Shown: positions 3,576 to 45,696 of the stretch, in pieces
How positions within the stretch are numbered: the first letter of the stretch is position 1
Layout: every line of letters begins with the position of its first letter
Origin: a virus
Lineage: Duplodnaviria; Heunggongvirae; Uroviricota; Caudoviricetes
Reading direction: 5' to 3' (one strand)
Virus record (IMG/VR): IMGVR_UViG_3300013200_000006
Length of the DNA: 64,000 nucleotides
The notes under the pieces: model-generated
What the model was told of the DNA's origin: nothing
Seen by the model: the letters and a program-made list of their open reading frames with translations, nothing else
Databases searched by the model: none
Made by a program: the position numbers and the translations under genes

Positions 3576-4154
3576 ATGAAGTTAAGTCAGTATGCCGAAA
3601 GGAAAGGAATTCATTACCGGACGGCGTGGAATCGTTTTAATCAGGGAAAGATTAAAGGTGCTTACCTGGATGAGACAGGTCATATTGTTGTTCCTGATCC
3701 CGAGGAAGAGCTAAAGCAGAAAGCAGCGTTGTATTCTCGCATGTCTACTCACGGACAGCGAAGTGATTTAGAACGTCAGGAACAGCGGTTGAAAGAGTTC
3801 GCGTCGTCTCGCGGGTTAGAGATAGTCCAGTCAGTGACAGAAGTAGCGTCTGGAGTAAGCGACCAGCGACCAAAGCTAATTAAACTTCTCAGCACCCCTA
3901 CCTGGGGAGTTCTGATCGTTGAGCATAAAGACAGGTTGTCACGTATTAACTTTGGCTGGCTTAAGTACTTCCTGTCATTGCTAGGAAAAGACATCATTGT
4001 TGTAGACAACACGATTGATTCCGACGAAGGAAAAGATGAGGATGTTTTCTCACTTCTTTACTCTTACACCGCAAGCGAGTACGGAAAACGAGGAGCAAAA
4101 CATCGTGCTGAACGAGCCCAACGTGCTTTAGAAGGCCGCAGCGATGACCTCTAA
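3576..4154 (+). CDS. tnpA: IS607-type serine recombinase transposase TnpA (MerR-like HTH + resolvase catalytic domain)
   Basis: N-terminal HTH (LSQYAERKGIHYRTAWNRF) and catalytic YSRMSTHGQ serine motif; 11-nt overlap with tnpB. Confidence 0.75.
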   Translation: MKLSQYAERKGIHYRTAWNRFNQGKIKGAYLDETGHIVVPDPEEELKQKAALYSRMSTHGQRSDLERQEQRLKEFASSRGLEIVQSVTEVASGVSDQRPKLIKLLSTPTWGVLIVEHKDRLSRINFGWLKYFLSLLGKDIIVVDNTIDSDEGKDEDVFSLLYSYTASEYGKRGAKHRAERAQRALEGRSDDL

Positions 4155-8269: not shown

Positions 8270-9115
8270 ATGCTTACCGTCACCGACAAGGTAGTTGTCC
8301 TCACGAACAGGGTACTCGATATGGACATCGACGCCTCCTGCGGCGCGTTTATCGACCGTGTTCCTGTGGTTACCGCTTTGTGTAGCGAAGTCAACGAAGA
8401 CGCAGACATTTTCCGAATCGATGCATTTGTTAAAGAAGAAAACAAGATGCCTTCTTTTACAGCAAACATTGCTTTTGATGCAGAAGGGGGTACTGTGTCT
8501 TTCACTCAAGCTGGAGTTTTAGCGTTCACGGAGTTCGCTGAGGCTTTGGGCGATTCTGTTCTTGTTTTCGTTACCTGCGGTGAAGACGAGGGGGATACGC
8601 TTCGCACGGGTATGTTTCGCATTAGCGATAAGGGCATTGAGGGCTTTGACGGTGGGGAGGCAGGTCAGCGTTTTGTTGATTTGATGGAGGTGGACGATCC
8701 AGAGGAGGTTGAGTTTTGGGATACGACGGGTGTTCCTTCTCGTGTGTCGGATACGGAGCTGATGGGCAGGATGCGTAAGGATTTATTGCGCCAGGAGGAG
8801 ATTGTTGATGAGGCTGTGGCTACTTTTGCTGATTTGCCGCAGGGTAGTGTGATGTTGTTGGACCAGTCTATCGTGGTGATGAAGTGCTCCCATAGTACGT
8901 CGGAGGAGAAGTTTTTCGAGTATGAGGGGTATGGGTCTGCGAGTGAGTATTGCAATCAGGTGGGGTTGTCGTTGGAGGAGTATGCGCAGTTGCGTGATGA
9001 GGCGCAGGTGGGTAAGTGGGTTGCTACTGACGGGGAGTTTTTGACGAATAATGAGGTGGTTTTGTTGGCTGAGGACAATTTTATGGTAGTTTTTGGACCC
9101 GCTCTTGACAAGTAA
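8270..9115 (+). CDS. hypothetical protein
   Basis: 281-aa acidic ORF with AAAGGATCTTC RBS region. Confidence 0.5.
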   Translation: MLTVTDKVVVLTNRVLDMDIDASCGAFIDRVPVVTALCSEVNEDADIFRIDAFVKEENKMPSFTANIAFDAEGGTVSFTQAGVLAFTEFAEALGDSVLVFVTCGEDEGDTLRTGMFRISDKGIEGFDGGEAGQRFVDLMEVDDPEEVEFWDTTGVPSRVSDTELMGRMRKDLLRQEEIVDEAVATFADLPQGSVMLLDQSIVVMKCSHSTSEEKFFEYEGYGSASEYCNQVGLSLEEYAQLRDEAQVGKWVATDGEFLTNNEVVLLAEDNFMVVFGPALDK

Positions 9116-9146
9116 CGCTTGTTGCGTTATAGTGGTTGGTGTTCAA

Positions 9147-9220
9147 CACCCTTGTAGCCCAAATGGCAGAGGCACTAGATTTAGGTTCTAGACAGTGTGG
9201 GTTCAAGTCCCACCAAGGGT
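9147..9220 (+). tRNA. tRNA with anticodon UAG (Leu codon CUA) but type-I short variable loop
   Basis: cloverleaf folded by eye: acceptor ACCCTTG/CAAGGGT, G18G19, anticodon stem CTAGA/TCTAG, loop TTTAGGT, T-arm GTGGG-TTCAAGT-CCCAC, discriminator A. Confidence 0.7.
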
Positions 9221-9221
9221 A

Positions 9222-9294
9222 TGGGAATGTCGTATAGTGGCTAATACCTCAGCCTTCCAAGCTGAAGACGCGGGTTCGATTCCCGTCATTCCCT
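9222..9294 (+). tRNA. tRNA-Gly (anticodon UCC)
   Basis: acceptor GGGAATG/CATTCCC, D-stem GTAT/ATAC, anticodon loop CTTCCAA, T-loop TTCGATT; starts 1 nt after previous tRNA. Confidence 0.8.
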
Positions 9295-9341
9295 CTCACA
9301 GGCCCTATCTTGTTTGGCTTAAGTTTTGGGGCTTGTGTTTT

Positions 9342-9416
9342 GCCTTCGTGGCGCAATTGGTAGCGCAACGCACTTGTAATGCGTAGGTTGCGGGTTCGAG
9401 TCCCGCCGAAGGCTCC
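9342..9416 (+). tRNA. tRNA-Thr (anticodon UGU), CCA encoded
   Basis: acceptor GCCTTCG/CGAAGGC, anticodon loop CTTGTAA, T-loop TTCGAGT, 3' CCA present. Confidence 0.85.
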
Positions 9417-9448
9417 AAATATTGTGTGTGGGAAACTTGGCTCATAGT

Positions 9449-9490
9449 GCCATCCAAACGTGCCAAGGGTGCCTCACCTTTGAAGAGCGG
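9449..9490 (-). repeat. solo copy of IS200/IS605-like end sequence (inverted relative to copies at 13441 and 15046)
   Basis: CCAAACGTGCCAAGGGTGCCTC...CCTTTGA is reverse complement of 15049-15080. Confidence 0.55.
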
Positions 9491-9522
9491 GGAAGACTTC
9501 AACAGACGTGGAAAGGAAGCCA

Positions 9523-9990
9523 ATGCCTAATCCTGCCTATAACCCCACTTCTTCCGTAAAGTTCTACACCTCCCTGACCAATAATCTCTACCTAAACGGC
9601 TACAATACCGAGCTGTGCAACCTCGAATTTAAACCGGAAGCAGGACACTGGTATCTCACCATTCGGGTGTCTGCGCAGGAGCGCTATCACGGCATTGTGG
9701 CGTTCTTCGTTCTTGGTCTCGCTAATGTATCCACGAGTGGAAACCGCGCGGAGGTGACGCACAGGTTGGTCGAGTTCGGCACCTACACCGGCGACGACCC
9801 TGACTTAAGCGACGATGCACTGTTCGACGCGGGGCTGTACCTCGACAGCGCACTTAATCAATCACGCGCCGAGGAGAACGACACGGTAGGTACGCGTCCA
9901 GGACAATGCGGCGTGCATGATGTGGCAGGTGCTATTACGGGAGCCATGACAGCAGCAGGGTTGCGCACGGGAGTGTGTATAACTGGCTAG
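9523..9990 (+). CDS. hypothetical protein
   Basis: ATG after GGAAAGGAAG RBS (track ORF starts at upstream GTG 9508). Confidence 0.5.
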   Translation: MPNPAYNPTSSVKFYTSLTNNLYLNGYNTELCNLEFKPEAGHWYLTIRVSAQERYHGIVAFFVLGLANVSTSGNRAEVTHRLVEFGTYTGDDPDLSDDALFDAGLYLDSALNQSRAEENDTVGTRPGQCGVHDVAGAITGAMTAAGLRTGVCITG

Positions 9991-13435: not shown

Positions 13436-13440
13436 AGTCC

Positions 13441-15080
13441 TCCCCATACCTTAAAGGCGGGGATTCCTGTCTCTAGCGAGTTGCTAGGACATGCGGTTTA
13501 CGGATCGTTGAACTACGCTGGCTCGTGGTTAAACCACGAGGATCAGACTGATAAGTTCTCACCGAGGGGTGCTTCCCACCCCAGAAGTTAGTGATTTCTT
13601 CTTTATGATCACGTAACGCTCTCTCAAGAATATTGATCGCAGCATTGTGATCAGCGTTGTCACTGTAACCACACTTTTTGCACAAGAACACCGCTTGGCT
13701 CTCACGGTTTTCTTGAGACACGTGACCACAAGATGAACAACGACGGGAAGTGTTTCGAGGATCAACCTCGATAATTTGTCCACCAGAAAGACGAGCCTTG
13801 TACTGCAAGAACTCACCAAACTGTGCTAAAGCAGAGAGACGAAGTTTGTGATTTAGTGCTCGCTTCGCACTTTGACCATTAGGCAGAAACTCCCCAGGAT
13901 TATGAGGATCTACCTTAGCTTTAGCCCTTTTCGACATTCCTGCCAAGTTGAGTTTCTCAATAGCAATAATGTCGTTTTCTTCTACCAAGCGACGAGAAAC
14001 CTTGTGCTGAACATCTTGAACGACACGAGAGATCTTCGCCTTGGTTTTAGCGATCTCTTTGTCACGCCGCTGCGAGGATTTACTGTTCTTCCCAGCTTTC
14101 TTCGCAGCGTGGTAACTATCAAATCCTAGATCCTCAGCTGATCTCTCTTGGCTTCGCTGAAGACGACGAACTTTATTATCCAAAGACGTGATCGTGTCCC
14201 AGGGAAGATTCTCAAAACCACCCTGACTATCAGCAGACATATGGACAACTCCACGATCAATACCAACAGCAGATCCTTGTCCTCGCTGTTCACGAGGGGT
14301 TACAGCCAGTGGCTCGTTGACAAAGACCAACTGCTTTTTCGTCCAGTTGACCTGAACGGAGGTGTAGGGGCGAATATCTTGGGAAAGACGAACATGAATC
14401 CGAATAACAAATCGCTGTCCCTTATCACCAGGATTTTTCTTTCCCTTGGGGTTCATTCCGGTAATGGACACAATTCCAGTACGGCGACCGACTTTCTCAA
14501 AACGAGCATTGCGTCCACTGTTAAACCAGCACACAAAAGTGTGGTCGTGTTTCTTGTATGACTTAAACTTAGGCATTTTTCCTGGATTTCGGCCAGATTC
14601 TTTGAGTGTTTTGCGTCGTTTTATAGAAGCAAACCATTCTTTGGCTTCGATCTGTTCTGGGCTTTGCAAAACAAGTGAAGGAACAGCCTTGAGAAAGCTA
14701 TGCTCTTCACGTGCCTGTTTATCCGTTGTTTCAACGACGGTGTCCCCCAGCGGGACTAGTACTTTGTCTTTGCCATACTTTTTACGCTGAGATCTGTGAT
14801 CGTTGAATCGTTTTCGCCAGGCAGAACACAGCCATTCTATGACCTGATTAGGGCTTCTAGAAAAGATAGGCTGTGATGAATCATTGTCACGGTCACCAAG
14901 ATACGGTGTAGCACCTTTAATGCTCACCTTGGTAATCTTGACAACTTGACTCATGTCTTTAACTCTACCATATGATTTATGTTAGTGGCAAGGGTGTTGT
15001 TAAATGGCTTTAGAGCTGTGAAATATCCTTAGAGTGCCAATTCCTCCCCACACCTCAAAGGCGGAGGCACCCTTGGCACG
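13441..15080 (-). mobile_element. IS200/IS605-family TnpB-only element (IS1341-like)
   Basis: tnpB flanked by similar direct subterminal sequences TCCTCCCCAYACCTYAAAGGCGG at 13441-13466 and 15046-15072. Confidence 0.6.
13473..14954 (-). CDS. tnpB: TnpB (OrfB) RNA-guided nuclease family protein
   Basis: RuvC-I GIDRGVVHM, zinc finger CSSCGHV...CKKCGYSDNADHNAAINI. Confidence 0.8.
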   Translation of the reverse strand: MSQVVKITKVSIKGATPYLGDRDNDSSQPIFSRSPNQVIEWLCSAWRKRFNDHRSQRKKYGKDKVLVPLGDTVVETTDKQAREEHSFLKAVPSLVLQSPEQIEAKEWFASIKRRKTLKESGRNPGKMPKFKSYKKHDHTFVCWFNSGRNARFEKVGRRTGIVSITGMNPKGKKNPGDKGQRFVIRIHVRLSQDIRPYTSVQVNWTKKQLVFVNEPLAVTPREQRGQGSAVGIDRGVVHMSADSQGGFENLPWDTITSLDNKVRRLQRSQERSAEDLGFDSYHAAKKAGKNSKSSQRRDKEIAKTKAKISRVVQDVQHKVSRRLVEENDIIAIEKLNLAGMSKRAKAKVDPHNPGEFLPNGQSAKRALNHKLRLSALAQFGEFLQYKARLSGGQIIEVDPRNTSRRCSSCGHVSQENRESQAVFLCKKCGYSDNADHNAAINILERALRDHKEEITNFWGGKHPSVRTYQSDPRGLTTSQRSSTIRKPHVLATR

Positions 15081-16862: not shown

Positions 16863-17099
16863 TTAGTCTTCTGCGAGCTTGTAGCGTCTGCCGGTTAAGG
16901 TAAGGTTTTTCGGGAGTGCCTGGACTAGGAACGTTTCTCCTTCCCTGTTGAACACGCACCTGATTTTGCCGTCATATGTTTCCTGAAGTAAGGTGACAAG
17001 CCCGTAGTCGGGGTGTTCTGCTTCGGCAAGGTAATGCTCGTCAGCGTTCCAGGGGGTGTCGGCCAGGGTGTTAGACATGATGGTCTCCTTTTTAAGCAT
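16863..17099 (-). CDS. hypothetical small protein
   Basis: 78-aa ORF overlapping start of next gene by 8 nt. Confidence 0.4.
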   Translation of the reverse strand: MLKKETIMSNTLADTPWNADEHYLAEAEHPDYGLVTLLQETYDGKIRCVFNREGETFLVQALPKNLTLTGRRYKLAED

Positions 17100-17556
17100 A
17101 CTTAGGTGTAGTGGTGGAGTCGATGTCCCAGGTTCCTGCGTGTGCGTATTCAGCAGTGAGCATGATCATTCGGTCGATAAGAACGGTGATAAATCGCTTT
17201 GCCTCACTGGTCTCCCAGTTGCTTGCTTCACACGACTGATAGTTGTAGCAATGTGCGGCGGAGATGATTTCAAATGGGGTCCATTTGGTGTGCTTAGGCA
17301 AAGAGTGCTCGTAGGCAAATTCTTCGTTGTTGCTGTAGCGTTCGTTGACGGATCGGAGGTTTGCTTCGCGGAGCATGTGTCCGAATTCTTCGGCGTTGGT
17401 GTCGGTGACTTCTCGGTAGTCTCCGTCGGGGGTGTAGTAGCGTACGTTGCTGTCAAGGGCGCGGTTGACGGGGGTATTGAGATTGAGTTTTTCGGGGTGG
17501 GTGGCGGCGAAGAGAAGGACGTTGAGGTGTTCGTTGCTGAGGGTGAAGCAGGACAT
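17092..17556 (-). CDS. hypothetical protein
   Basis: 154-aa ORF. Confidence 0.45.
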   Translation of the reverse strand: MSCFTLSNEHLNVLLFAATHPEKLNLNTPVNRALDSNVRYYTPDGDYREVTDTNAEEFGHMLREANLRSVNERYSNNEEFAYEHSLPKHTKWTPFEIISAAHCYNYQSCEASNWETSEAKRFITVLIDRMIMLTAEYAHAGTWDIDSTTTPKYA

Positions 17557-17679
17557 GGTGTGTGCTTTCTGTTGCCGGTTTATGCTTACAGGGTGTTAGT
17601 ATACTTGAGCGGGTCACAAAACACAAACCACACAAAAAGCCCCAGCCAAAAGCCAGGGCACAAGACTTAAAGAACGCGC

Positions 17680-17883
17680 TTAAAGCTCCTCAAACTCACC
17701 ATTATCATCATAACGGCCCAAAGCCTCCGCACGGTCAGAATCCTCGATATAGTCAACATCAACGTCAACATCAGTGTAGCCCACACCGGACATGTAGTTT
17801 TCTACTGCCTCCTCCAAGGTCTCACCATCAGCAGTGACCTCAACAGTGCCATCAATCGGCAAACGGAACATGTAACGAGTCAT
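17680..17883 (-). CDS. small acidic protein, paralog family member 1
   Basis: MTRYMFRLPIDGTVEVTADGETLEEAVENYM; one of three tandem ~67-aa paralogs. Confidence 0.55.
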   Translation of the reverse strand: MTRYMFRLPIDGTVEVTADGETLEEAVENYMSGVGYTDVDVDVDYIEDSDRAEALGRYDDNGEFEEL

Positions 17884-17910
17884 TAATTTTCTCCTTCGAA
17901 TCAGGACGGG

Positions 17911-18114
17911 TTAGAGTGCAACAAAGTTGCCGTTATCAGTGTAGCCGATACCCACTACTTCGTTGGTATCAATGGTGTAGTCAAGGTACTCTTTGGCAAC
18001 TCCCTCATCATTCATATAGTTTTCCACAGCATCATCAAGGGACTCGCCATCAGCATGCACTTCAACAAGGCTGTCAGCGCTGTCAATAGGGGCGCGGAAG
18101 ATATAACGTGGCAC
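17911..18114 (-). CDS. small acidic protein, paralog family member 2
   Basis: MPRYIFRAPIDS..VEVHADGESLDDAVENYM. Confidence 0.55.
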   Translation of the reverse strand: MPRYIFRAPIDSADSLVEVHADGESLDDAVENYMNDEGVAKEYLDYTIDTNEVVGIGYTDNGNFVAL

Positions 18115-18132
18115 GGGACTTTCTCCTTTAAA

Positions 18133-18333
18133 TCAGTGGCGGATTAGGGGCGTGCAACAGTCATCAACACAGTCGATACCGACCACATCGCCAGCGATAA
18201 TAGTGTAATCGGGATAGTCTTCTGCGTTCCCCACACCATTCATGTAGTTTTTCACAGCGTCATCAAGCGATTCGCCGTCAGCGTGGACTTCAACCATGCC
18301 TTCAATGGGGGCGCGGAAAACAAAGTGGGCCAT
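18133..18333 (-). CDS. small acidic protein, paralog family member 3
   Basis: MAHFVFRAPIEGMVEVHADGESLDDAVKNYM. Confidence 0.55.
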   Translation of the reverse strand: MAHFVFRAPIEGMVEVHADGESLDDAVKNYMNGVGNAEDYPDYTIIAGDVVGIDCVDDCCTPLIRH

Positions 18334-18418
18334 AAGGGTTCTCCTTTAGTGTAGTAGGTTCCGTATTCAGACTATCATGCCTTGGTCTGGCACAGACACT
18401 CTCGCGCCGGGTTCAGGC

Positions 18419-19165
18419 TCATACCCGCGGGCAAATCCACAGGTACGTCGCATCATCAAATCCACCGCTACCCCCGGCAAACCGCGCACCAAGACCCTCA
18501 CGCGCCAGCTTCGGCCAGCCATCACTGTGGAGAACCAACTCCGGATCGGGGGACTGCACTACAATCTCCTCCACCGCCAGAGGACTAGTCATACCGTACT
18601 GCACAACCGGATACCCGCCTGATGCATTCGCCATGGCACGAGTCTTGCGGTACACATCACGCCGAGCTGAGTCGAAACCGTCACCGGGGGTAAGCCCTGC
18701 AACGTCTGACTGATTACGTGCCTCAAATTGTGCAAACACCGGCTCTGACAAAGCCCCGTCTACTACTACTACGCCGGTGCTGTCTCTGACCTGCCAGGCA
18801 ACATCGGCGGACTGGATTAGGCGAACCTGCGTATCAGACACGTGTGCCAGAACCATCGCCGCGCTTGGCGGTTCCCACGGGTTTCGTAGGTCGAGTGGGC
18901 CGACACGGCGGGTTGCTTGCATGACTGCTTCGTGTAGGAGTTCACGCAAGTCCACCTTATCGTCTGCGTCTGCGGCCAAACTATGCAACGCGGCGGTAAT
19001 ATGTGCGGTGAACGAGGCAACCACGCCACCATCGTCACTGGAGTTATCAGGCACGAGAGACGTGGCACCGTCAATAACCCAGGCGAAGCTGCCTTGTGTC
19101 CCTGAGCTGTCCTCGTAATACGGCTTGGTGCCTTGAATGTGTAAGTTCTGTATGACGTTTAGCAT
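18419..19165 (-). CDS. hypothetical protein, possible PP2C-like (PPM) phosphatase fold
   Basis: FAWVIDGATS and LVLHSDGWPK resemble PPM motifs; weak. Confidence 0.3.
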   Translation of the reverse strand: MLNVIQNLHIQGTKPYYEDSSGTQGSFAWVIDGATSLVPDNSSDDGGVVASFTAHITAALHSLAADADDKVDLRELLHEAVMQATRRVGPLDLRNPWEPPSAAMVLAHVSDTQVRLIQSADVAWQVRDSTGVVVVDGALSEPVFAQFEARNQSDVAGLTPGDGFDSARRDVYRKTRAMANASGGYPVVQYGMTSPLAVEEIVVQSPDPELVLHSDGWPKLAREGLGARFAGGSGGFDDATYLWICPRV

Positions 19166-19393
19166 GCTTTTCCCTTCTATTGTTTTCCGACTTCAGTATA
19201 GATGGACTCCTTCGCTCTCACGGGTAGGATTTCAATGAAGTATTGAACGAAACCCTTGATATGGAGTTTGGTCCTGAAACGTGGATAAAAAAGGGGGGGA
19301 GTAACAGTTTAACAGTTGCGTCCTTGGCGTGTAGTAGGCTAAGGTAGAAGACAAGGTGGATGAAAACTCCATAGTTGCCCCATAAACCTGCTG

Positions 19394-19669
19394 TTCGTGA
19401 AGTCTTTTCCCCGCACACGCGGGGTTGTTCCCCGCACCATCGAAAGCGGCCTCACCGGCGAAACCTTTTCCCCGCACACGCGGGGTTGTTCCCATACTTG
19501 TTAATGTGTTCGATTGAGTGACGGACTATTCCCCGCATACGCGGGGTTGTTCCCAGCTCAGCGGCGGTGATCCCATAGCCGGTCGCCTTTTCCCCGCTCC
19601 TGCGGGGTTGTTCCCCTTGGGCGCAGCCGTAGCCACTCCCAATGTCAGAGTATTTCCCACATACGCGGG
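19394..19669 (+). CRISPR. orphan mini-CRISPR array, 4 full repeats + degenerate terminal repeat, type I-E-like 29-nt repeat CTTTTCCCCGCACACGCGGGGTTGTTCCC
   Basis: repeats at 19394-19422, 19455-19483, 19515-19543, 19577-19605, degenerate 19641-19669; spacers 32, 31, 33, 35 nt; CCCCGC-NNNN-GCGGGG stem-loop like Cas6e substrates; AT-rich candidate leader 19200-19393; no cas genes in window. Confidence 0.8.
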
Positions 19670-19677
19670 GTCGCCCT

Positions 19678-22302
19678 CTAAATCACACCCGCATCCATGG
19701 CAGCACGAGCAATCTTATTCCCCAACGCCGCGCGAGTGGTCCGCCACTGTGTGTAGTACTGGTCGTAAAGTTCGTTGTCTACGCGGTCGCGGCCAAAGAC
19801 CATAGCATTGATCTGTGCCCAGCCTGCGTCCCAGGTTTGTACCTGGAATCGTGGGGTTACCGTGTCAAAGGTGGAGCGCTTGGCAAATGAGGCTTCGATG
19901 ATTTCCCACGCGAGGTCGAGTAGTGCGCGGGCCTTGGTGGAGATGTTTTCGTTGTGGTCGGTAAGCCAGCGGTGTACTAGCCGGTCGTTTTCTCCTATTG
20001 CGTCGGCTTCGATGGTGCGGTTGCGGTGCTGTTGGGCAAGTTCCACTATCTTGTTGTGGTCGAAGGGGAAGAACTCGTTAACCACGCGATAGGTTTGTCC
20101 ATTGTACTCATAGTCACGCAGACTGGTCTGTTTCGATTGCCGGTCGAACAGCGAATACACCATGCAATCCGTGATGAACTCATCGGTGAGCAGAGACTCA
20201 GGAGGCCGGGTGAAAACATCCTTATCCCGCACCCACAGCAACTTTTGTTGCGCGACAACTTCCTGCACCGAGCGGCGAGTACTGAACGTGACAGCGGCGC
20301 GTTCTAAGTTGTCTGAGGTTACTGTATACCCTCCCGCGTTACCGAAAATCATTGAGTACATTCCAGTATAACCGTCGGCATATTGTACGTTGGAACTATG
20401 AGCGTGCAGCCCTCCTACCCACCCAGACCATGCGGACGGACGTTGCTTGGAAGTTGGCTCATCGTACCCATTCTTTGTCATAAGAGCACAGGGGTCTTTG
20501 CTGTCACTTGGCTTAATGTCTCTGAACCAGGAACTTAAATCTTCTCCTTTGGGTACGGACTTGGACTCCCACGTGGTGAGTTCCTTAATCTCAAGTGCCG
20601 AATCAGACCTCAACACGTCGTACTTGAACTCCCGTTGGTTCGTTCCACCAATCTCGAAGTGCGAGAACACAATCCCCCACGTGGAACTGGTTCCAGAGAA
20701 CTCGCCTGCGTTCATCATAAACCCGTCGTGATAAGTGAACTCAGAAGTCAGTTCGTCCACGAATTTGCCGAAGTTTGGGCTAGTCAAAACCGTTTTGTTG
20801 AAGAAGAAGCAAATGTGGAAGTTAGCGGTGTAGCCGAATACCTTGGCTAACTCCTTCGTACGCCAGATGAACTGGGTATAGAGTTCCCACTTCGCCTTAT
20901 TAAGACCTTCCATTAGATCCCCAACTGCGGTGTTTGAAATGGTTGTCTTTCTCCCCTCGGCTTTGGTTCCATTTCCATGCTGCCCATACGGCGGATTGGC
21001 GAAGAATACGATCGGCTTGTTTGCGGCGAGTGCTTCCACCAGCCCCAGCAGCATTTTGAGTTTCCCGGCGCGGGCTAGTTCCAGTGCTTTGTCCGCGGTC
21101 ATGTCGTCCTCGTGGAGCACCATGTCGTCGTTCAAGAAATCATACTGGAACTTGGTGGCTTCCGGGTTGTAGTCGGCGGCAATGTCTAGTTCTTCTTGGA
21201 ACAGGGTGGAGCAGTACAGTTCCTTGAATCGGTAGTCGCGGGTGAGGTTCAGGGTGCCGCAGGCCGGGTCAACGACCACGTAGTTGTCTTTCCAGTTATC
21301 GCCCAGTGCGTCCTCAATGTACTCGTGAGCCTTATCCACCCACCGCGGCGGTGTCCAAAAATCACCAGTAAAACGTCGGTCAGTTTCTTCAATTAAAGTG
21401 TCAGCCACCTCAGTCAGCGACTTCAACTCCACCAACGTATAGTCACCCACCACGTACTGCGACCAGAATTGCTCAAAACGATACGTATCCAGGGTCAGGT
21501 GCTTGTCGCCTACAACAAGCGTGTTTGGCTTTTTGGGGTGAGCGTAAATGTCACTGTTGCCGCGGAGAATGTCAATAAAGAGGGAAATCTCGTCTTTGTT
21601 CTTCAGCCCCGTAGCATCGGTGCCGAGTACTTCCATTTTGAAGCGAGTAAATACATGATCCATGGACTCTTTGTTGATAGGTACACGCAGTGGTTTGGTG
21701 CGCTGCCCCATGGCGTCGACGGCCCATAGGAACATGTTGGGGTCGAAGCCTGCTTGGATGTCGTGGACGTAGACGTGGTGGAGGTTGGAGTCTTGGATGA
21801 GGTCTGCAAGCAGTGTGGCGTCTTGATGCATGGTGGATGCGGAGTAGTTGTGCCACGGGTAGGTGTCGTTGGTGGTGTATTTGTCGAGTTTGTTGGCGGG
21901 CATGGCGAAGATTTCGTCGGTGTCGCAGATGACGACGACGGAGGGTGTGCGTGCTCCGGTGGTGGGGAGGTTGCGGAGGTACCAGCAGACTTGGGCGTAG
22001 ACTGTGGCGCGGTCTTTTTTGTTTGCGGAGAGGTTGAGGTCACGTTTTGCTTCGACGAGGAGTGCGTAGGGTGTGGTGGTGTCGGTGATTTCGATGTAGC
22101 CGTCGGTGTTGTTGCGGTAGTCGTGGGTGATGGTGGCTTCGGGGTGGATTTTTTTGAGTCCGGTGGTCAGGAGGGTGTTGACGGCGCTTTCGACGGCTTT
22201 TTCTACGTCGCCGGTGTGGTGGGCGTGGGCGAGGGTTTCGATGAAGTGGTCGGTTTGGGTTTGGGTGAGGATTTGGTGGTGTGTGGGGGCGTAGGTGGGC
22301 AT
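19678..22302 (-). CDS. MmeI-family Type IIL/IIG restriction-modification fusion enzyme (PD-ExK endonuclease + gamma-class N6-adenine methyltransferase + TRD)
   Basis: N-terminal GYIEITD...ALLVEAKRDL matches MmeI endonuclease motif (GFVDLFW...LLIEMKSRGKDL); motif I VVVDPACGT; motif IV FFANPPYG; 874 aa comparable to MmeI. Confidence 0.7.
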   Translation of the reverse strand: MPTYAPTHHQILTQTQTDHFIETLAHAHHTGDVEKAVESAVNTLLTTGLKKIHPEATITHDYRNNTDGYIEITDTTTPYALLVEAKRDLNLSANKKDRATVYAQVCWYLRNLPTTGARTPSVVVICDTDEIFAMPANKLDKYTTNDTYPWHNYSASTMHQDATLLADLIQDSNLHHVYVHDIQAGFDPNMFLWAVDAMGQRTKPLRVPINKESMDHVFTRFKMEVLGTDATGLKNKDEISLFIDILRGNSDIYAHPKKPNTLVVGDKHLTLDTYRFEQFWSQYVVGDYTLVELKSLTEVADTLIEETDRRFTGDFWTPPRWVDKAHEYIEDALGDNWKDNYVVVDPACGTLNLTRDYRFKELYCSTLFQEELDIAADYNPEATKFQYDFLNDDMVLHEDDMTADKALELARAGKLKMLLGLVEALAANKPIVFFANPPYGQHGNGTKAEGRKTTISNTAVGDLMEGLNKAKWELYTQFIWRTKELAKVFGYTANFHICFFFNKTVLTSPNFGKFVDELTSEFTYHDGFMMNAGEFSGTSSTWGIVFSHFEIGGTNQREFKYDVLRSDSALEIKELTTWESKSVPKGEDLSSWFRDIKPSDSKDPCALMTKNGYDEPTSKQRPSAWSGWVGGLHAHSSNVQYADGYTGMYSMIFGNAGGYTVTSDNLERAAVTFSTRRSVQEVVAQQKLLWVRDKDVFTRPPESLLTDEFITDCMVYSLFDRQSKQTSLRDYEYNGQTYRVVNEFFPFDHNKIVELAQQHRNRTIEADAIGENDRLVHRWLTDHNENISTKARALLDLAWEIIEASFAKRSTFDTVTPRFQVQTWDAGWAQINAMVFGRDRVDNELYDQYYTQWRTTRAALGNKIARAAMDAGVI

Positions 22303-22396
22303 GGTTTTCTTTCTTTTTAGGGGTTGTTTCTGGGTTTAGTGTAGCATGGTTTTTGATACGTAGAAAAATATACGCGCAAAGTTTTTAGGGAATAAA

Positions 22397-23755
22397 ATGC
22401 TCGAAAAGTTTATCAACAAACTCACCACACCCACCTATCCTGCCAACAAACCCATGTTCTACCCCGGCTACATCAAACGCACAGACGGCCTCGATGTAGA
22501 CAACACTCTTACCCAACTTAACGCTAACTACGCCACCAACCCTGACCACATCCATGGCACTTTCCACCGGCTTGCCTCCATCAGTGATCTCGAACCCATA
22601 CTCTACAATCACTGCACCAACAACCCCACCTCCATAGGAAACTGGCTCCCACCCCTGCTCAAAGCACACCGCGGGCTTAACAACCCTGCCCTCCATATCC
22701 CAGCAACACGCACCATCCGCCTTGATCACGAGCTTGCCCAGTACCTGCGCGTTGAATTCGCAGATACCAACACACTTAGCCAACGTATCCTCGATGCTTA
22801 TCTTTTCAACGAACTAAAACTCGACGATACTGATTACTTCATCAAAACCGGCACCTTCTCCGGCAAATTCCAATTCGCCAACGCCCACTGCACAGAACCA
22901 GACGAAATCGGACAATACTTCCACGTCATCAACAACTTCGCCATGTCCGTCGGTGCCGGAGAAACCACCGACCTCGCCATACGCGACTACGTTCCCGACA
23001 CTCGCCAAAGTGCGCCCACAATTTACAACGGGATGCCACTGCGCTGCGAATACCGTCTCTTCATCGACTTTGGCGACAATACAGAGGCACAAAACTATAC
23101 CGAACCCACCCGGCGCGCGGCGTATGCCCATAAGTTCGCTGACCCGCACAAGCCTGACGACAACTGTCCCGCCCACATTATGGGAATTACGCATTATTGG
23201 CACCGCAGAGTTATGCGGCAACACTTCGCCATGCTCAACAACCCCGAATTTGCCGGATACAGCGGCATTAACCCCAAGGACGCTGCCACCTACCGCGCAT
23301 ACGAATCCGAGCTTGACGCCCAATTTGACCAGCATCTAGACAGTGTGCGCGCCGGGGTGGAAGAGTTGCTGCCCGGAATGTATGCGGAGGGTTTTCGCGG
23401 CCAGTGGAGTGTGGACGTTATGGTGAACGCTGCTGATACGGGGGAGGTTGTGTTGTACCTGATTGATATGGCGCTGATGTGCGAGTCTGCGTTGTCTGAT
23501 GAGCTTGATACTGTTGATGAGTTGCGTTATGTGCCGGTGGAGGATATTCGCGCCGCGGCAGGGCGTAAGGTTCTGTGGTATGCCCCGGCTCCGGATTTTG
23601 TGCCGGGCAGTGTTGTCGATGGGCACGGTGTGGCGCACGAGTTTGTGCAAGGAAGTGCCGAAAAGGCGTTGCGGTGGGGTGTTGAGAAAAATCTTTTGTC
23701 TACGGACGGGTCGTCGGTGCCGTTTTTGGAGACGTTGCCTAGGTCTGCGGATTAG
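22397..23755 (+). CDS. hypothetical protein, possible ATP-grasp-like nucleotide-binding loop
   Basis: FIKTGTFSGKF resembles ATP-grasp phosphate loop; otherwise unrecognised; divergent from RM gene. Confidence 0.3.
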   Translation: MLEKFINKLTTPTYPANKPMFYPGYIKRTDGLDVDNTLTQLNANYATNPDHIHGTFHRLASISDLEPILYNHCTNNPTSIGNWLPPLLKAHRGLNNPALHIPATRTIRLDHELAQYLRVEFADTNTLSQRILDAYLFNELKLDDTDYFIKTGTFSGKFQFANAHCTEPDEIGQYFHVINNFAMSVGAGETTDLAIRDYVPDTRQSAPTIYNGMPLRCEYRLFIDFGDNTEAQNYTEPTRRAAYAHKFADPHKPDDNCPAHIMGITHYWHRRVMRQHFAMLNNPEFAGYSGINPKDAATYRAYESELDAQFDQHLDSVRAGVEELLPGMYAEGFRGQWSVDVMVNAADTGEVVLYLIDMALMCESALSDELDTVDELRYVPVEDIRAAAGRKVLWYAPAPDFVPGSVVDGHGVAHEFVQGSAEKALRWGVEKNLLSTDGSSVPFLETLPRSAD

Positions 23756-24033
23756 TGCTGGTTAATAGGTGTTTCTTTGGTCACTAGGCGGCATACGATT
23801 TTGTCGTGGGCAGTCGTGTTTTCATGATTGTTGAGGTCTTCAATAGTTGGGTACCACTTGTCCGCTAAACGGTACTCATTGTCAACCCAACGCGATACAC
23901 AATACTCGTACTCCATGCCCGCAACCAACTCAAGAAGATCATCCACAGTCGCTAAACATGGCTCCGCGTCTGGGAATTCTTCCAAAAGTTCGATCAGGTC
24001 ACGGGCGGATTGTGGGGTAATGGGAAAATCCAC
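23752..24033 (-). CDS. hypothetical small protein
   Basis: 93-aa ORF. Confidence 0.4.
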   Translation of the reverse strand: MDFPITPQSARDLIELLEEFPDAEPCLATVDDLLELVAGMEYEYCVSRWVDNEYRLADKWYPTIEDLNNHENTTAHDKIVCRLVTKETPINQH

Positions 24034-25376: not shown

Positions 25377-26297
25377 ATGCTATCAGCAGGAATTATTGTC
25401 CTGATTCTCATTATTATCGGCATTCTCGTCATCCTTGACGGGTTCGTCATTGTCCGCACCCGAGAAGCCGCCATCATTGAGCGCCTCGGCAAATTCAATC
25501 ACATTGCTCACGCGGGCCTAAACTTCAAAATCCCAATCATTGACCGCGTACGCGACAAAATTGATCTGCGCGTTCGCCAGTTGGACGTCATGGTCGAAAC
25601 CAAAACGAAGGATAACGTCTTTGTTCAGATCCCCGTCGCCGTCCAATACGAAGTAGTCCAAGGACGCGAGCGCGAAGCCTACTACACACTGTCCGAGCCG
25701 GAAGAGCAGATCGTGGCCTATGTACAAGACAATGTGCGCACATCTGTGGCAACCATGGACTTGGATGAGTCGTTTGCGTCGAAGGACACGATCGCAAAGT
25801 ATGTGGCTGAATCATTGCGCGATAACATGGAGTCTTACGGTTGGAACTTCGTCAACACGCTCGTGACCGATATTCGCCCTGATTCTCGCGTGCGCGAGTC
25901 CATGAACTCCATTAACGCCGCCCAGCGTGAACGTGAAGCTGCTATTGCGCAGGCTGAGGCAGAGAAGATTCGCGTGGTTAAGGAAGCTGAGGGTGCTGCT
26001 GAGGCGAAGAAGCTTGCGGGTCGTGGTGTTGCGGATCAGCGTAAGGAGATTGTTGAGGGTATTGCTCAGCAGTTTGAGTTGCTTCGTGCTGCGGGTGTGA
26101 AGGAGAATCCGGAGTCGTTGATGTTGGTGTCGCAGTATTTGGATGCGATGGTTGATGTGGCGGATAAGTCGCAAGGTAGTGTGATGTTTATGCCGTCTAA
26201 TCCGCAGGGTATGAATGGTTTGTTTGATGGTATGCGGGATGCGTTGTTGTCTGCGGGTCAGGTGCAATCACATTCCGTGCCTACAGTCAACAAGTAA
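25377..26297 (+). CDS. SPFH/band-7 (stomatin/prohibitin-like) membrane protein
   Basis: N-terminal TM, then VIVRTREAAIIERLGKFNHIAHAGLNFKIPIIDRV SPFH core and Ala/Glu-rich coiled coil. Confidence 0.7.
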   Translation: MLSAGIIVLILIIIGILVILDGFVIVRTREAAIIERLGKFNHIAHAGLNFKIPIIDRVRDKIDLRVRQLDVMVETKTKDNVFVQIPVAVQYEVVQGREREAYYTLSEPEEQIVAYVQDNVRTSVATMDLDESFASKDTIAKYVAESLRDNMESYGWNFVNTLVTDIRPDSRVRESMNSINAAQREREAAIAQAEAEKIRVVKEAEGAAEAKKLAGRGVADQRKEIVEGIAQQFELLRAAGVKENPESLMLVSQYLDAMVDVADKSQGSVMFMPSNPQGMNGLFDGMRDALLSAGQVQSHSVPTVNK

Positions 26298-28352: not shown

Positions 28353-30476
28353 ATGAACAACATCACCGCCCAGCTACGCAACAACATCATCACCATCCCC
28401 TCCCTCACCCACCCCGCAGACACCACCCTCTGCGACGCCACCGCCGCAAACCTTCTCACCTACGGCATCCTCATCGACCCCGAAAAGCTCCGCGGCGCAA
28501 GCACAACCTTCCTCACCAACCTCAACACCGCAGCCCGCAAACTCCGCGGCGCAGACCGCACCTGGGACACGTTCTACCCCAACTTCCCCAAGGGTGTGCA
28601 AGAAACCGATGAACTCACCCTCATCATCCAGCAGCTCGCCCACTACTGGACCCACGGACACTACACCCCGCAAGAACCAGACAACAAGCGCGACGAACTA
28701 CCCCTAGAAGAAATGCTCACCGGGGCCACCCGCGTCGACGTCCTCCGCGACCCCACAGACGCACCCGACATCATTGCCCGACGCATCAACCACCCCACCG
28801 CACTTCCTGCACAGGACGCAGAGTACTTTGCCGAGCTTACTTCCTTGATCACCAAGGACGACATCATCACCATTGGCAATGCTACCCGGCGCGCACGGTT
28901 CAAGGAGAATGTGGGGTTGTGGCATGCGGCTGTGGCATGTCAGCCTGTAGTCGAGGACCTGGATTTTGTGGTAGATCTTATCAACACTGTCGATTCGGCA
29001 GATGTGCTGCTGCGCCTTATTCTAGCGCTGTATGTTTACCCGCAGGACGTGGACGATGTGGAAGAAACCGCGGACAAGATCGCACGCTTCAAAACCCTGG
29101 ACCGCGGCACCAAAACCCGCCCCATCCCTCGACGAGTGCGCCGCGCTATTGTTAACCGCCTACCGCACACGGTACACAATAAGCACTTCCCAGCAGACGC
29201 ACTCCTTATGCGCGCCGGGTTGTGGAAGCGAGTACTGTCTTCTATCCATGCCTTCGACTACGCCCGTGACGAGCAGGTTAAGTACCTCCTGGATAGTCTT
29301 TTTGGCAACAATGACTACACTTCACTCAACGCTTTGGCAGATCAAGGACTCCAAGATTCTGCTACCACTCGCATGGCTGTTGACGCTCTCGCACTCTACG
29401 CGCCGGGGCGTTTGATGCGTAACGTAGTAGCGTTTTCGGTTAATGATTTTGCTGCTACTGTAGCTGCAGTTTCCGAGTGTGCAGATAAGGTGGCTGTAAC
29501 AACCCTGGTTTCTGCGGTCAACGCTGTGCGCTCTGCTGCGTCTGGTGGTCAGCGTTATCGCCGTATTGCTGGCGGTTCTACTGCTTTGGTAGAAGATGAG
29601 GTGCGGTTGTCTGGCACTCAGGCACAAGAGTTGGAGGAGTGCATCGTCACTCGCGGTATTCGACCGTCCTTAGCGAAAACCCCGTTGCCTGATAGCCCTG
29701 TGGGTGTCCGCGGCGGTGAGGTTGCTGTGCCGTTGTCGGTTGTTGGCCGTTCTGCTACGAAGACGGATCGTCGTCGTATGGTGCAGGGTGAGCGTATGAT
29801 GCTTCCTGGTTCAGGTGGTGTGGTGCGGTTCTTTATGCACTGGTATGACTGTGAAGACTCGTATGGTGGCACGGATCTGGATTTGGGTCTTGTGCTGCTT
29901 GACGAGGACATGCAGGTTATTGAGACGTGGGATTATGCGGACGTGCATAGTTCTTCTCATGGCACGAATGAGACTGTGACGTTTTCTGGTGACTCCATAC
30001 AGGCTCCGCGTCCTGATGGTGCATCGGAGTTTTTCGATGTGGATATGGCGAAGTTGGTGCAGAAGTATCCTACGGCGCGGTATATGGTGGAGAATGTTCG
30101 TGTGTATTCGGGTGCGTCGAGTATTTCTGCTGTGGATAATTATTGTGGTGTGATGCGTCGTGACAAGGCTATGTCGGGTGAGGTGTTTGATGCTCGTACT
30201 GTGGTTTCGGGTGCGTGTGCGTCTACGGGGTCGAAGTTTGTGGTGTTGTTGGCTGTTGATGTGGTAACAGGTGAGTTGGTGTGGTTGGATACGGAGACTG
30301 GTTCGACGGAGTTGTGTGGTCGTGCGGCGACGGATGGTGAGGCGACGGGGTTGGCTGTTGGTGAGGTTTTGGGTGGGTCTCGGGTGAGTGTGGGTGAGTT
30401 GCTTGGTTGGTGGTCTGGTGGTCGGGTGGATGAGTCTGTGGGTGTTGATTGGGATATGGTGTTTGGCTTGTTGTAG
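28353..30476 (+). CDS. large protein with C-terminal TerD-like domain
   Basis: C-terminal ~190 aa: TDLDLGLVLLDEDMQVIE...TVTFSGDSIQAPRPDGASEFFDVDMAKL...VYSGAS matches TerD pattern (lDlDlsalllD...hsGDnltGeg...); N-terminal 480 aa unrecognised; AAAGGACAAAAACC RBS. Confidence 0.55.
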   Translation: MNNITAQLRNNIITIPSLTHPADTTLCDATAANLLTYGILIDPEKLRGASTTFLTNLNTAARKLRGADRTWDTFYPNFPKGVQETDELTLIIQQLAHYWTHGHYTPQEPDNKRDELPLEEMLTGATRVDVLRDPTDAPDIIARRINHPTALPAQDAEYFAELTSLITKDDIITIGNATRRARFKENVGLWHAAVACQPVVEDLDFVVDLINTVDSADVLLRLILALYVYPQDVDDVEETADKIARFKTLDRGTKTRPIPRRVRRAIVNRLPHTVHNKHFPADALLMRAGLWKRVLSSIHAFDYARDEQVKYLLDSLFGNNDYTSLNALADQGLQDSATTRMAVDALALYAPGRLMRNVVAFSVNDFAATVAAVSECADKVAVTTLVSAVNAVRSAASGGQRYRRIAGGSTALVEDEVRLSGTQAQELEECIVTRGIRPSLAKTPLPDSPVGVRGGEVAVPLSVVGRSATKTDRRRMVQGERMMLPGSGGVVRFFMHWYDCEDSYGGTDLDLGLVLLDEDMQVIETWDYADVHSSSHGTNETVTFSGDSIQAPRPDGASEFFDVDMAKLVQKYPTARYMVENVRVYSGASSISAVDNYCGVMRRDKAMSGEVFDARTVVSGACASTGSKFVVLLAVDVVTGELVWLDTETGSTELCGRAATDGEATGLAVGEVLGGSRVSVGELLGWWSGGRVDESVGVDWDMVFGLL

Positions 30477-31559: not shown

Positions 31560-32420
31560 CTACTTCTTACGCATATCTACAAGCGGCGCCGCGCTCGAAC
31601 CCTCGATACAGCCCACAGGGGCGGCACCGACCTTTTCGGCGGCCTCGATGCAGCGCTGGGACAGCACCTCGTCAGATAGCGACTTGCGCATAATCTCGTT
31701 GGCTTCGGCGATTTCCTTGGCGGTCTTCTTGGACTGCTCCGCCGCACGGGTATTAGCTACCTCGGATTGCAGCTGATCAATCTTGCGCTGGGTGTCCTCG
31801 TCGTAGTTGATAATCGGCAGGGCTACGCTGCGTACTTCGACTGCTCCGCCCATGCGCTTTTGCATGTCCTCTTTGATGTCGTCGGCGAACTCGTTGAGGT
31901 CAATTCCGCCCTCGGCAATCGCGTCTGCATCGAGCGGGTTGTAGCTGGCGAGCACAGCGTTGACGCTGGCGCGGAACTCGCGGTCAACCAGGTCGTTGTG
32001 GATACGCTCGAACTCGCGGTAGTCCAGGTACATCTGTTCCGCGTCCTCTTCGCGCAGCTGCCACTGGATCGACGCGTCGGCCTTGGCTTCGGACTGGTTG
32101 GCGAGACGAACCCCGATGGCGCTATCGCCGGTATAGCGGTTGGTTTGCAGCGACGCGTCCATCTTCTCGACCTCTTCCCACGGCTTCACCAGGTGCAGGC
32201 CGTTGGACAGGGTGCCGGTGGGCTTGCCGAATGCGGTGACCACGCCGACGGTACGTGCGGGAACAGCCACGGTGCTTGTGGCTACGATCATGACAATGCC
32301 TAGTAAAAGCACGCCGCCACCTGCCGCGCGAGTGGAGACTGCCATGCGTGGGGATACGGCGACGATTAATCCTGCCACGACGAAAATCGCCGCTAGAATG
32401 AGCATGAAAATTTCGAACAT
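31560..32420 (-). CDS. SPFH/band-7-like membrane protein
   Basis: two N-terminal TM helices; GVVTAFGKPTGTLSNGLHLVKPWEEVEKMDASLQT SPFH-like core; C-terminal coiled coil. Confidence 0.55.
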   Translation of the reverse strand: MFEIFMLILAAIFVVAGLIVAVSPRMAVSTRAAGGGVLLLGIVMIVATSTVAVPARTVGVVTAFGKPTGTLSNGLHLVKPWEEVEKMDASLQTNRYTGDSAIGVRLANQSEAKADASIQWQLREEDAEQMYLDYREFERIHNDLVDREFRASVNAVLASYNPLDADAIAEGGIDLNEFADDIKEDMQKRMGGAVEVRSVALPIINYDEDTQRKIDQLQSEVANTRAAEQSKKTAKEIAEANEIMRKSLSDEVLSQRCIEAAEKVGAAPVGCIEGSSAAPLVDMRKK

Positions 32421-45360: not shown

Positions 45361-45696
45361 GGTCGATACCAGGTGTGGAGTCCATGCACTCAAACACCTG
45401 GTCGTAGCCGTCTGTACGAGAGGTAAGCGGCTCCATGTTTGTGCGCGCTATAACCCCGGATACGAGTGTGGCGCGCATAATGTCTACAAAACGCTGCGGG
45501 TCTGTGGTGTGCTCTACTGTGTCGTGGTACTCGGGGGTGAAAAAGCTTGTATCGCCGTAAACAACGCGGGGGAAGACTTCTTCGGTTTCTACATCGGAAA
45601 CTGTGTCACCTAGGTAGATGCTGGCGGTGATCACAGTATCGTGGGGTGTGACGGTGATAATGAATGAGTCCACTGAAATCCTCCTAGGTATATAAG

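Follow-up and report, generated by a model that had tools for sequence, protein, structure and literature searches.

What is a short CRISPR array doing on a phage-like element with no cas genes around it? The question is raised by IMG/VR record IMGVR_UViG_3300013200_000006, a stretch of 64,000 nucleotides (nt) assigned to Caudoviricetes and referred to here in its full length as the window. At 19404-19615 (+ strand) it holds four 29-nt direct repeats that constitute a genuine CRISPR array, set between a 248-amino-acid (aa) gene and the gene for an 874-aa nuclease-methyltransferase-like protein. The answer considered probable here is that the array is a functional one of type I-E, through which a phage-like element of skin actinobacteria targets other elements of its own kind. 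The evidence comes from the anatomy of the array, the protospacers of the family, and the distribution of arrays and cas genes among relatives, which are designated below by locus number (L052 and so forth).

Architecture of the array

The features of the locus, in order along the window, are as follows.

18419-19165, - strand: 248-aa gene on the leader side of the array
19166-19403, + strand: leader, 238 nt, 44.5% GC against 51.3% for the window
19361-19403, + strand: leader-proximal conserved motif, TGAAAACTCCATAGTTGCCCCATAAACCTGCTGTTCGTGAAGT, near-identical in L052, L089 and L098
19404-19432, + strand: repeat 1, CTTTTCCCCGCACACGCGGGGTTGTTCCC, hairpin of -12.3 kcal/mol
19433-19464, + strand: spacer S1, 32 nt
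19465-19493, + strand: repeat 2, CTTTTCCCCGCACACGCGGGGTTGTTCCC, same as repeat 1
19494-19525, + strand: spacer S2, 32 nt, 37.5% GC
19526-19554, + strand: repeat 3, CTATTCCCCGCATACGCGGGGTTGTTCCC
19555-19586, + strand: spacer S3, 32 nt
19587-19615, + strand: repeat 4, CTTTTCCCCGCTCCTGCGGGGTTGTTCCC, loop TCCT with the stem kept
19616-19649, + strand: spacer S4, 34 nt, the anchor spacer at the trailer end
19650-19678, + strand: degenerate terminal (fifth) repeat, GTATTTCCCACATACGCGGGGTCGCCCTC, no hairpin fold

Repeat starts are spaced by 61, 61, 61 and 63 nt, and the 24-nt repeat core, CCCCGC-N4-GCGGGGTTGTTCCC, is present in four copies where shuffled sequence predicts 0.01. An 18-nt direct repeat in the window, D2, was rejected as a chance match. 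In the predicted fold of repeats 1-4, 5 unpaired nt precede a stem of 6 G+C base pairs closed by a 4-nt loop, and 8 nt are left over as a tail (.....((((((....))))))........; -12.3 to -12.9 kcal/mol, z -2.9 to -4.1). The 8-nt 3' tail corresponds to the geometry of a Cas6e substrate (5 + 16 + 8 nt), and the repeat 3' end would supply UUGUUCCC as the 5' handle of each CRISPR RNA (crRNA). The loop is the sole difference between repeat 4 and repeat 1, and across all repeat copies compared in the family loops vary while stems are conserved. Because the repeat that follows S4 cannot form the hairpin, the S4 crRNA is probably not matured.

The leader is the intergenic region that the array has in common with the divergently transcribed 248-aa gene, and its conserved motif follows the pattern TGAAAACTC.ATAGT. 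From the other side, the 874-aa open reading frame (ORF) converges on the array, its stop codon (19678-19680) overlapping the final base of the degenerate repeat. A preliminary description of the locus, made from the sequence alone, had reported the four 29-nt repeats with their CCCCGC-N4-GCGGGG hairpin and 8-nt handle, the loop-only change in repeat 4, a degenerate fifth repeat at the leader-distal end and an AT-rich candidate leader; all of these stand. Its spacer range of 31-35 nt does not, the actual values being 32, 32, 32 and 34 nt, and the gap of 9 nt that it placed between trailer and stop codon is in fact a one-base overlap.

Protospacers in rival alleles

The spacers bear directly on what the array might be for. 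In the array-less relative L053, the 873-aa gene contains a sequence that agrees with S1 at 31 of 32 positions and is immediately preceded on its 5' side by AAC; L089, L090, L092 and L098 agree with S1 at 26 of 32. Shuffled spacers never exceed 22 matches in these 607 kb of family DNA. The window has its own version of this site.

19988-20019, - strand: S1-homologous site of the window; first 12 nt and AAC flank kept, other 20 nt diverged, 12 mismatches in total

Because this site has diverged past its first 12 nt, the array would spare the genome that carries it. No window spacer matches the window itself over more than 12 nt. Since S1 matches the rivals' allele with an AAC protospacer adjacent motif (PAM), and not the element's own copy, the array is taken to be aimed at competitors, as the preliminary description had proposed. 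The search for targets of all four spacers succeeded in part: S1 found its target among family relatives, but S2, S3 and S4 gave none above background in INPHARED, IMG/VR or the 607 kb of family DNA.

The same pattern of a rival matched and a carrier's own site mutated recurs elsewhere in the family. Spacer 4 of the L052 array matches the homologue of the 874-aa gene in L089 at 30 of 31 positions with an AAC flank, and the corresponding site carries 15-16 mismatches in both array bearers, the window and L052. Spacers of the cas-bearing L054/L057 arrays match a TnpB gene and TnpB-element ends in window-type relatives, with AAG or AAT flanks; one of them reaches 28-29 of 32 positions at the element ends in L062, L064, L099 and L093, each with an AAG or AAT PAM, and matches the copy in the window imperfectly. 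A spacer of the L089/L098 array matches the start region of the 248-aa gene in the window over 24 of 24 nt, with the seed end mismatched.

All six good protospacers in the family are flanked by AAN (AAC, AAG or AAT), an AAG-type 5' PAM, and in the four cases checked the last base of the preceding repeat equals the PAM base at -1. A last repeat base derived from the PAM is a signature of I-E spacer integration known from E. coli.

Turnover at a fixed site

The window, L052, L089 and L098 carry an array at the same site, and all four have the trailer spacer S4 and the degenerate last repeat in common. Beyond S4, the spacers of L089 and L098 differ from those of the window, L098 being L089 with one extra spacer at the leader end. 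In L052, S1 and S2 are followed by three more spacers, then by a 1-kb insertion that holds two ORFs, and finally by S3 and S4; S2 is the same in the window and L052 at 32 of 32 positions, and an internal deletion has left the window with the shorter array of the two. In L053 and L090 the site is empty, a 57-nt gap standing in place of the array, and relative to them window positions 19211-19673 (most of the leader plus the array) form a clean indel. Different spacer content is thus found at one genomic position, and because the trailer spacer is common to relatives while the leader ends differ, the array is, on sequence comparison, one that turns over.

The insertion in L052, an 85%-identity relative, lies at 8807-9846 and splits the array between repeats. 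Its ORFs (174 and 166 aa) have no Pfam or PHROG match; the cargo could be an anti-defence or mobile module.

A phage lineage of type I-E systems

Where would the Cas proteins come from? A tblastn search with six phage I-E Cas proteins found no I-E cas homologue in the 64-kb window, scans with Pfam, NCBIfam and PHROG models found no Cas family there other than TnpB, and no cas genes lie in the left 5.6 kb of the source contig either. The earlier claim of a cas-free 64 kb is thus confirmed. Its label "orphan" applies within the window, but the genome is apparently at least 120 kb (see below), so that the label is limited to this stretch and cas genes could lie elsewhere in the genome.

Several relatives carry the interference genes.

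L168, 5145-12372: I-E interference operon
L171, 5224-12342: I-E interference operon
L173, 107-4684: I-E interference operon

In L057/L168, where the homologue of the 874-aa gene is 65% identical and GC content is 59%, cas3, cse1, cse2, cas7, cas5 and cas6e lie about 4 kb from that homologue, and five arrays with a CTTTTCCCCGC....GCGGGGTTGTTCC[CGT] repeat are scattered over 20 kb around the operon. L171 (GC 51.4%) and L173 (GC 54%) have the same six cas genes, followed directly by a leader and an array. The CTTTTCCCCGC....GCGGGGTTGTTCC repeat therefore borders cas3-cse1-cse2-cas7-cas5-cas6e in all of these, and the last ~45 nt of the window leader (TGAAAACTCCATAGTT...CTGCTGTTCGTGAAGT) are recognisably kept in the cas6e-adjacent leaders of L173 and L171. 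Neither cas1 nor cas2 was found near the operons of L057/L168, L171 and L173. The phage Cas7 proteins form a clade of their own (~25 clusters, 61-100% identity), to which the closest bacterial Cas7e proteins, from Corynebacterium breve, C. pacaense and Amycolatopsis, are 43-46% identical.

Since the same repeat and a homologous leader adjoin cas6e in relatives, the window array is assigned to a phage-lineage I-E system. Use of the host's Cascade-Cas3, as the preliminary description had it, is one candidate among several. The element family exists in three states: some members have a full I-E interference operon but no adaptation module, some have only an array, and some have neither. As the window encodes no Cas proteins, they would be needed in trans, and may come from another part of the same genome, from a related element with a phage-type I-E operon, or from the host. 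The cas-less elements may parasitise the Cascade of cas-bearing relatives that have the identical repeat. As a separate observation, spacer 4 of the L106 array matches L057 at 22576-22607, the 3' end of cas7, at 26 of 32 positions with a GAT flank, a weak match that may be a trace of targeting a rival's CRISPR-Cas genes.

The distribution of cas genes also admits an account in which the window array is a decaying remnant. An ancestor with a full phage-type I-E locus would have lost its cas genes, leaving a stub of leader and array that has no function and persists until it is deleted, as in L053 and L090. Homology of the leader to those beside cas6e in L173 and L171 is as this account predicts, as are the degenerate terminal repeat, the internal deletion relative to L052, the existence of array-less relatives and the cas-free window. 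However, the stems of repeats 1-4 are perfect and the leader-proximal motif is conserved; rival alleles that exist today are matched, with correct PAMs, by S1 and L052 spacer 4, whose carriers are immune; leader-end spacer content differs between lineages; and a degenerate last repeat is normal in active arrays. Decay is accordingly regarded as rather unlikely.

A different role for cas-less repeats is known from Camara-Wilpert et al. 2023 (PMC10651486), in which solitary phage repeats can act as RNA anti-CRISPRs (Racrs), including against type I-E. Repeat transcripts of the window would in that case soak up Cas6e and Cascade subunits of the host or of cas-bearing rivals and shield the element from type I-E interference; among the spacers of the cas-bearing relatives are indeed some directed against TnpB elements like those in window-type elements. 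Racrs, however, are solitary repeats that lack a canonical spacer-repeat unit, whereas the window has four repeats with a 61-nt period, 32-nt spacers and a leader. Spacer sets that are specific to lineages, and a protospacer in rivals with a fitting PAM, likewise have the look of an array that produces guides. With its canonical spacers and real targets the array falls outside the Racr class, and a decoy as its explanation is improbable, although decoy and guide roles are not mutually exclusive.

Repeat class and chromosomal counterparts

Repeat geometry, the 61-nt period and the AAN PAM deduced from protospacers all fit type I-E, to which the array is on these grounds assigned; the I-E-like class given in the preliminary description is upheld by these features and by the cas-linked occurrence of the same repeat. 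The E. coli I-E repeat, GAGTT-CCCCGC-GCCA-GCGGGG-ATAAACCG, has the same 5 + 16 + 8 layout. Rfam contains no CRISPR-DR family that matches the repeat, either at the gathering threshold or at expectation values (E) up to 10, and neither the repeat core nor any of the four spacers has an exact match in IMG/VR. Apart from two gut records named "Bacteriophage sp.", which are unannotated and whose repeats are I-E-like but whose spacer matches are at chance level, a blastn search of INPHARED with the whole array returned nothing.

Chromosomal counterparts are found among Actinomycetota. The 24-nt core is exact in ~50 loci of the genome collection, nearly all of them arrays of Streptomyces, Kitasatospora, Actinokineospora and Actinacidiphila with a 61-nt period, and in nine of these the fetched stretch contains I-E cas homologues (mostly cse2, cas7, cas5 and cas6e, 24-51% identity). 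The Streptomyces I-E arrays (L004-L050) and the window repeat are identical over the 3' 24 nt, and the nearest chromosomal repeat, CTGCTCCCCGCACACGCGGGGTTGTTCCC of Streptomyces sp. PT12, agrees at 27 of 29 positions. The 29-nt repeat, the 61-nt period, the CCCCGC-N4-GCGGGG hairpin, the 8-nt handle and a variable, PAM-derived last repeat base are common to the chromosomal actinomycetotal systems and the window. The two differ in that the chromosomal arrays compared are long, with cas1 and cas2 present in L175 of C. breve, whereas that of the window is short, and in that the 5' end of the phage repeat is AT-rich (CTTTT), specific to the element family and unlike the chromosomal repeats.

Identity of the repeat 3' end to Streptomyces chromosomal repeats could be read as a sign that recombination brought in part of a bacterial chromosomal array, or that the assembly is chimeric, and that the array has nothing to do with the biology of the element. 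This reading is largely refuted, since the array recurs at one and the same site in assemblies made independently from different samples (NODE_11, JGI Ga0118317_100010, L052, L089 and L098). The family-specific CTTTT end argues in the same direction, as do the spacers of the 50 fetched genome loci with the repeat core, whose longest match to the window is ~15 nt. Such an origin is extremely improbable.

A proposed mechanism, and what weighs against it

From these observations we infer transcription, processing, provision of Cas proteins and interference along the following lines. Transcription would proceed from the leader in the direction of the 874-aa gene's end, and Cas6e would cut after each hairpin to release crRNAs for S1, S2 and S3. 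These would load into a type I-E Cascade, its Cas proteins supplied in trans from elsewhere in the genome, from a related element with a phage-type I-E operon or from the host, and Cascade would recruit Cas3 to protospacer DNA with a 5'-AAN PAM. The targets would be closely related rival elements, S1 being directed at the common form of the neighbouring 874-aa gene's hypervariable 3' half, while the array-bearing element keeps a diverged, immune allele. The outcome would be exclusion of co-infecting relatives, or an advantage over them.

A number of findings weigh against this scheme. Only one of the four window spacers has a known target. A promoter scan of the leader detected no recognisable sigma-70 consensus promoter. 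For the Cas proteins there are candidate sources only, and the phage-borne operons lack cas1 and cas2, which leaves the addition of spacers unexplained. Left of the array, identity between the window and L052 is 98.7%; it is 97.5% beyond 24044 and only 86.8% across the 874-aa and 452-aa genes. Both have the same S1 and S2 though the neighbouring gene differs by 13% in nucleotides, and because of this mosaic recombination is indicated, not recent acquisition. The single Corynebacterium chromosomal I-E system compared, the C. breve locus L175 with cas1, cas2 and a long array, has the repeat GTGTTCCCCGCGCGAGCGGGGATGATCCN, with the same stem but with a handle that differs from that of the window at 2 of 8 positions. 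Finally, neither a capsid nor a portal nor a terminase gene was seen in the window. Its viral character is drawn from replication and recombination genes, transfer RNAs (tRNAs), WhiB and tail- or lysin-like matches, and because neither capsid nor terminase is seen the element is called phage-like.

The 874-aa protein

The gene that the array abuts, and that contains the S1 protospacer in rivals, has two segments of note.

19678-22302, - strand: 874-aa nuclease-methyltransferase-like gene, so named from motifs and best fold matches
19678-21100, - strand: hypervariable 3' half of this gene, 51-76% nt identity to L053 against 97-100% in the first 600 nt

The protein has an N-terminal nuclease signature of PD-(D/E)xK type, recognised at the level of the motif only: residues D67, E84 and K86 of the PD-ExK motif are invariant in 26 close and 23 distant homologues. 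It also has the motifs of a gamma-class N6-adenine methyltransferase, namely GDFWTP (motif X), DPACGT (motif I) and NPPYG (motif IV), among which D345, G349 and N436-P-P-Y439 are invariant. The best fold matches are DrdV (7LO5) and BpuSI (3S1S), and profile matches were obtained to HsdM (3UFB, E 9e-4) and to DrdV (7LO5, E 1e-3). The structure model is mediocre, with a predicted local distance difference test (pLDDT) score of 62 overall, but its N-terminal domain scores 80-90 and matches restriction nuclease folds. No MmeI, Eco57I or N6_Mtase model of Pfam matches, the only hit being DUF7149 at 20 bits against a cut-off of 27; among the 23 distant homologues, one touches N6_Mtase (E 2e-4). NCBIfam, PHROGs, a PDB sequence search and a search of PDB with a profile from the alignment of close relatives gave nothing.

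The protein thus looks like a single-chain nuclease-methyltransferase fusion of type IIG/IIL. The preliminary description had called it an MmeI-family type IIL restriction-modification gene; motifs and fold matches agree with the IIG/IIL part of that name, but the MmeI model of Pfam does not recognise it. It differs from DrdV, BpuSI and MmeI, the type IIL/IIG enzymes of reference, in having no significant match to the MmeI, Eco57I and N6_Mtase models of Pfam, in being a predicted enzyme, and in being encoded by a conserved, intein-prone gene of an element family, sometimes present as two paralogues.

The gene is a conserved member of the element family and not a sporadic add-on. Homologues in the protein collection number 890; the 120 listed are 48-98% identical, lie on contigs of up to 221 kb, and include four with a LAGLIDADG intein (P0004, P0025, P0033 and P0105; 1221-1381 aa, PF14528). 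Because some copies carry inteins, the gene also appears to be a landing site for homing elements. More distant homologues, at ~30% identity, occur in IMG/VR phages of up to 321 kb and on plasmids of Lactobacillus, Ligilactobacillus, Bacillus, Fluviibacter and Acinetobacter; judged by its motifs, this is a widespread nuclease-methyltransferase-like family of mobile elements. The plasmid homologues (H27-H41) are found on small (9-16 kb) plasmids and on mega plasmids, and all annotated copies are called hypothetical. Homologues of 25-45% identity also occur on low-GC skin contigs (L100, L101 and L104, GC 37%) and in IMG/VR phages.

The hypervariable 3' half may encode a specificity domain. The counterparts in the window of the protospacers of S1 and L052 spacer 4 both fall within it. 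In the preliminary description, array and enzyme were two unrelated functions packed together; that view is not sustained, given that a spacer of the array targets rival alleles of that very gene. The leader-array and the diverged 874-aa allele may even form one linked selfish cassette, a CRISPR-guided device for marker exclusion or homing, although this is unlikely. If it were so, a crRNA would direct cleavage of the rival allele during co-infection, right beside the empty site, and recombinational repair from the array-bearing genome would copy both immune allele and array into the rival. Such a device would explain the clustering of protospacers in array-flanking genes, the divergence hot spot in the 3' half of the gene in genomes that are otherwise 97-99% identical, the identity of S1 and S2 across mosaic backgrounds and the attraction of inteins to the same gene.

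Relation to known viral arrays

The preferred reading of the window array, as a functional array that targets related elements, has a close parallel in archaeal viruses. Medvedeva et al. 2019 (PMC6858448) describe cas-less, leader-bearing mini-arrays at the same position in the Sulfolobales viruses SPV1 and SPV2, whose spacers are aimed at each other, whose self sites are mutated and whose targets lie close to the arrays, and they interpret these as a means of heterotypic superinfection exclusion. According to the same paper, which is the source for this statement, Faure et al. 2019 reported phage and prophage mini-arrays with spacers against adjacent genes of close relatives. A short, cas-less, intergenic array with a leader, at the same position in relatives but with different spacers, a mutated own locus, and spacers against close relatives, often in genes near the array, are features common to SPV1/SPV2 and the window. 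The window differs in being bacterial (actinobacterial, from skin), of type I-E and with four spacers, whereas SPV1 and SPV2 are archaeal, of type I-A/I-D-like and with one or two spacers. A further difference is that repeat and leader of the window match phage-borne I-E operons of relatives, and no demonstrated host array, and that the target of one spacer is known.

For huge phages, Al-Shayeb et al. 2020 (PMC7162821) report that most CRISPR systems lack Cas1, Cas2 and Cas4 and have compact arrays, and that some cas-less arrays share host repeats, with spacers that target core genes of competing phages. Compact arrays, incomplete CRISPR-Cas systems and the targeting of competitors are common to the huge phages and the window. 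The systems highlighted there are a type I-C variant, type II and type V, whereas the window family has a canonical type I-E, and the text consulted describes no canonical I-E operon in a skin actinophage lineage with array-only, cas-less relatives. No prior description of skin or Corynebacterium phages with I-E arrays was found in the literature searched.

CRISPR arrays directed by one virus against another are thus already documented, and the window array, on a phage-like element, is a clear further example and no novel kind of system. What sets it apart is the canonical I-E subtype, the skin habitat, the group of hosts, the occurrence of three states within one family, and a spacer specific to one allele of the hypervariable gene next to which the array lies. 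The family, with spacers aimed at each other's alleles and TnpB elements, provides, from the human skin microbiome, a clear-cut bacterial parallel to SPV1/SPV2 in archaea. It makes testable where cas-less viral arrays obtain Cas proteins, how spacers are gained without cas1 and cas2, and why targets adjoin the array in relatives. It also supplies a compact, diverged I-E Cascade and a widespread IIG/IIL-like family of phages and plasmids.

The carrier element

The window is probably part of a large actinobacterial phage-like element of human skin with a Corynebacterium-like host. The same DNA is present in ENA ERZ1030898 NODE_11 (73,568 nt) and in JGI 3300013443 Ga0118317_100010 (73,540 nt), and relatives come from assemblies labelled human skin metagenome. 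Searches of IMG/VR and INPHARED returned no match to the element; for INPHARED phages these comprised a megablast of 17000-24000 and a tblastn search with the 874-aa protein. The family-A DNA polymerase (PolA) of the window is ~40% identical to PolI of Gordonia, Nocardia, Corynebacterium and Mycobacterium phages, and the gene content further includes exonucleases, RusA, Dam, WhiB, an LCP-family protein and two TnpB genes, with NlpC/P60, SLT and tail-like PHROG matches. One relative carries a cutinase gene. Cutinase-like esterases (LysB) are typical of phages of mycolic-acid hosts, and it is such mycolata hallmarks in the element family that suggest a Corynebacterium-like host. The window also encodes tRNAs.

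9148-9417, + strand: tRNA cluster Leu, Gly, Thr
45696-45769, - strand: tRNA-Asn, separate

Window-type contigs are paired in three samples with contigs that bear a 62-66% paralogue of the 874-aa gene, at coverages of 31.2 and 32.4 (ERZ1030898 NODE_11 and NODE_21), 34.2 and 33.3 (ERZ1036872 NODE-288 and NODE-159) and 14.0 and 14.6 (ERZ1031113 NODE-54 and NODE-148), and two paralogues of the gene occur on a single 95-kb contig. The near-equal coverage of both contigs in three samples suggests one genome of at least 120 kb with two paralogues. That the 73.5-kb contig might itself be a complete genome, since two assemblies start alike, was considered and rejected: its start adjoins a repeated TnpB element, the contig of one relative extends to 106 kb, and coverage links it to a second contig.

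Repeated TnpB elements probably break the assemblies. A 493-aa TnpB gene (NF040570, 174 bits) lies at 13473-14954 (- strand), and because the segment has no counterpart in L052, L053, L089 and L098 it appears to be a recent insertion; the element has hairpin-like ends, TCCTCCCCA.ACCT.AAAGGCGG.G, near 13438-13470 and 15039-15075. At 3576-5589 (+ strand) a serine resolvase (192 aa) is directly followed by a second TnpB-like gene (481 aa), which together resemble an IS607-type pair, and a third TnpB is found at the left end of the source contig (L059, 806-1951). SPFH/Band_7 genes at 25377-26297 (+ strand) and 31560-32420 (- strand) flank a 707-aa protein at 28353-30476 (+ strand) with similarity, below the cut-off, to the MXAN_6230/SCO0854 RING-domain family (NF041916, E 4e-36), and relatives retain the set next to the 874-aa gene.

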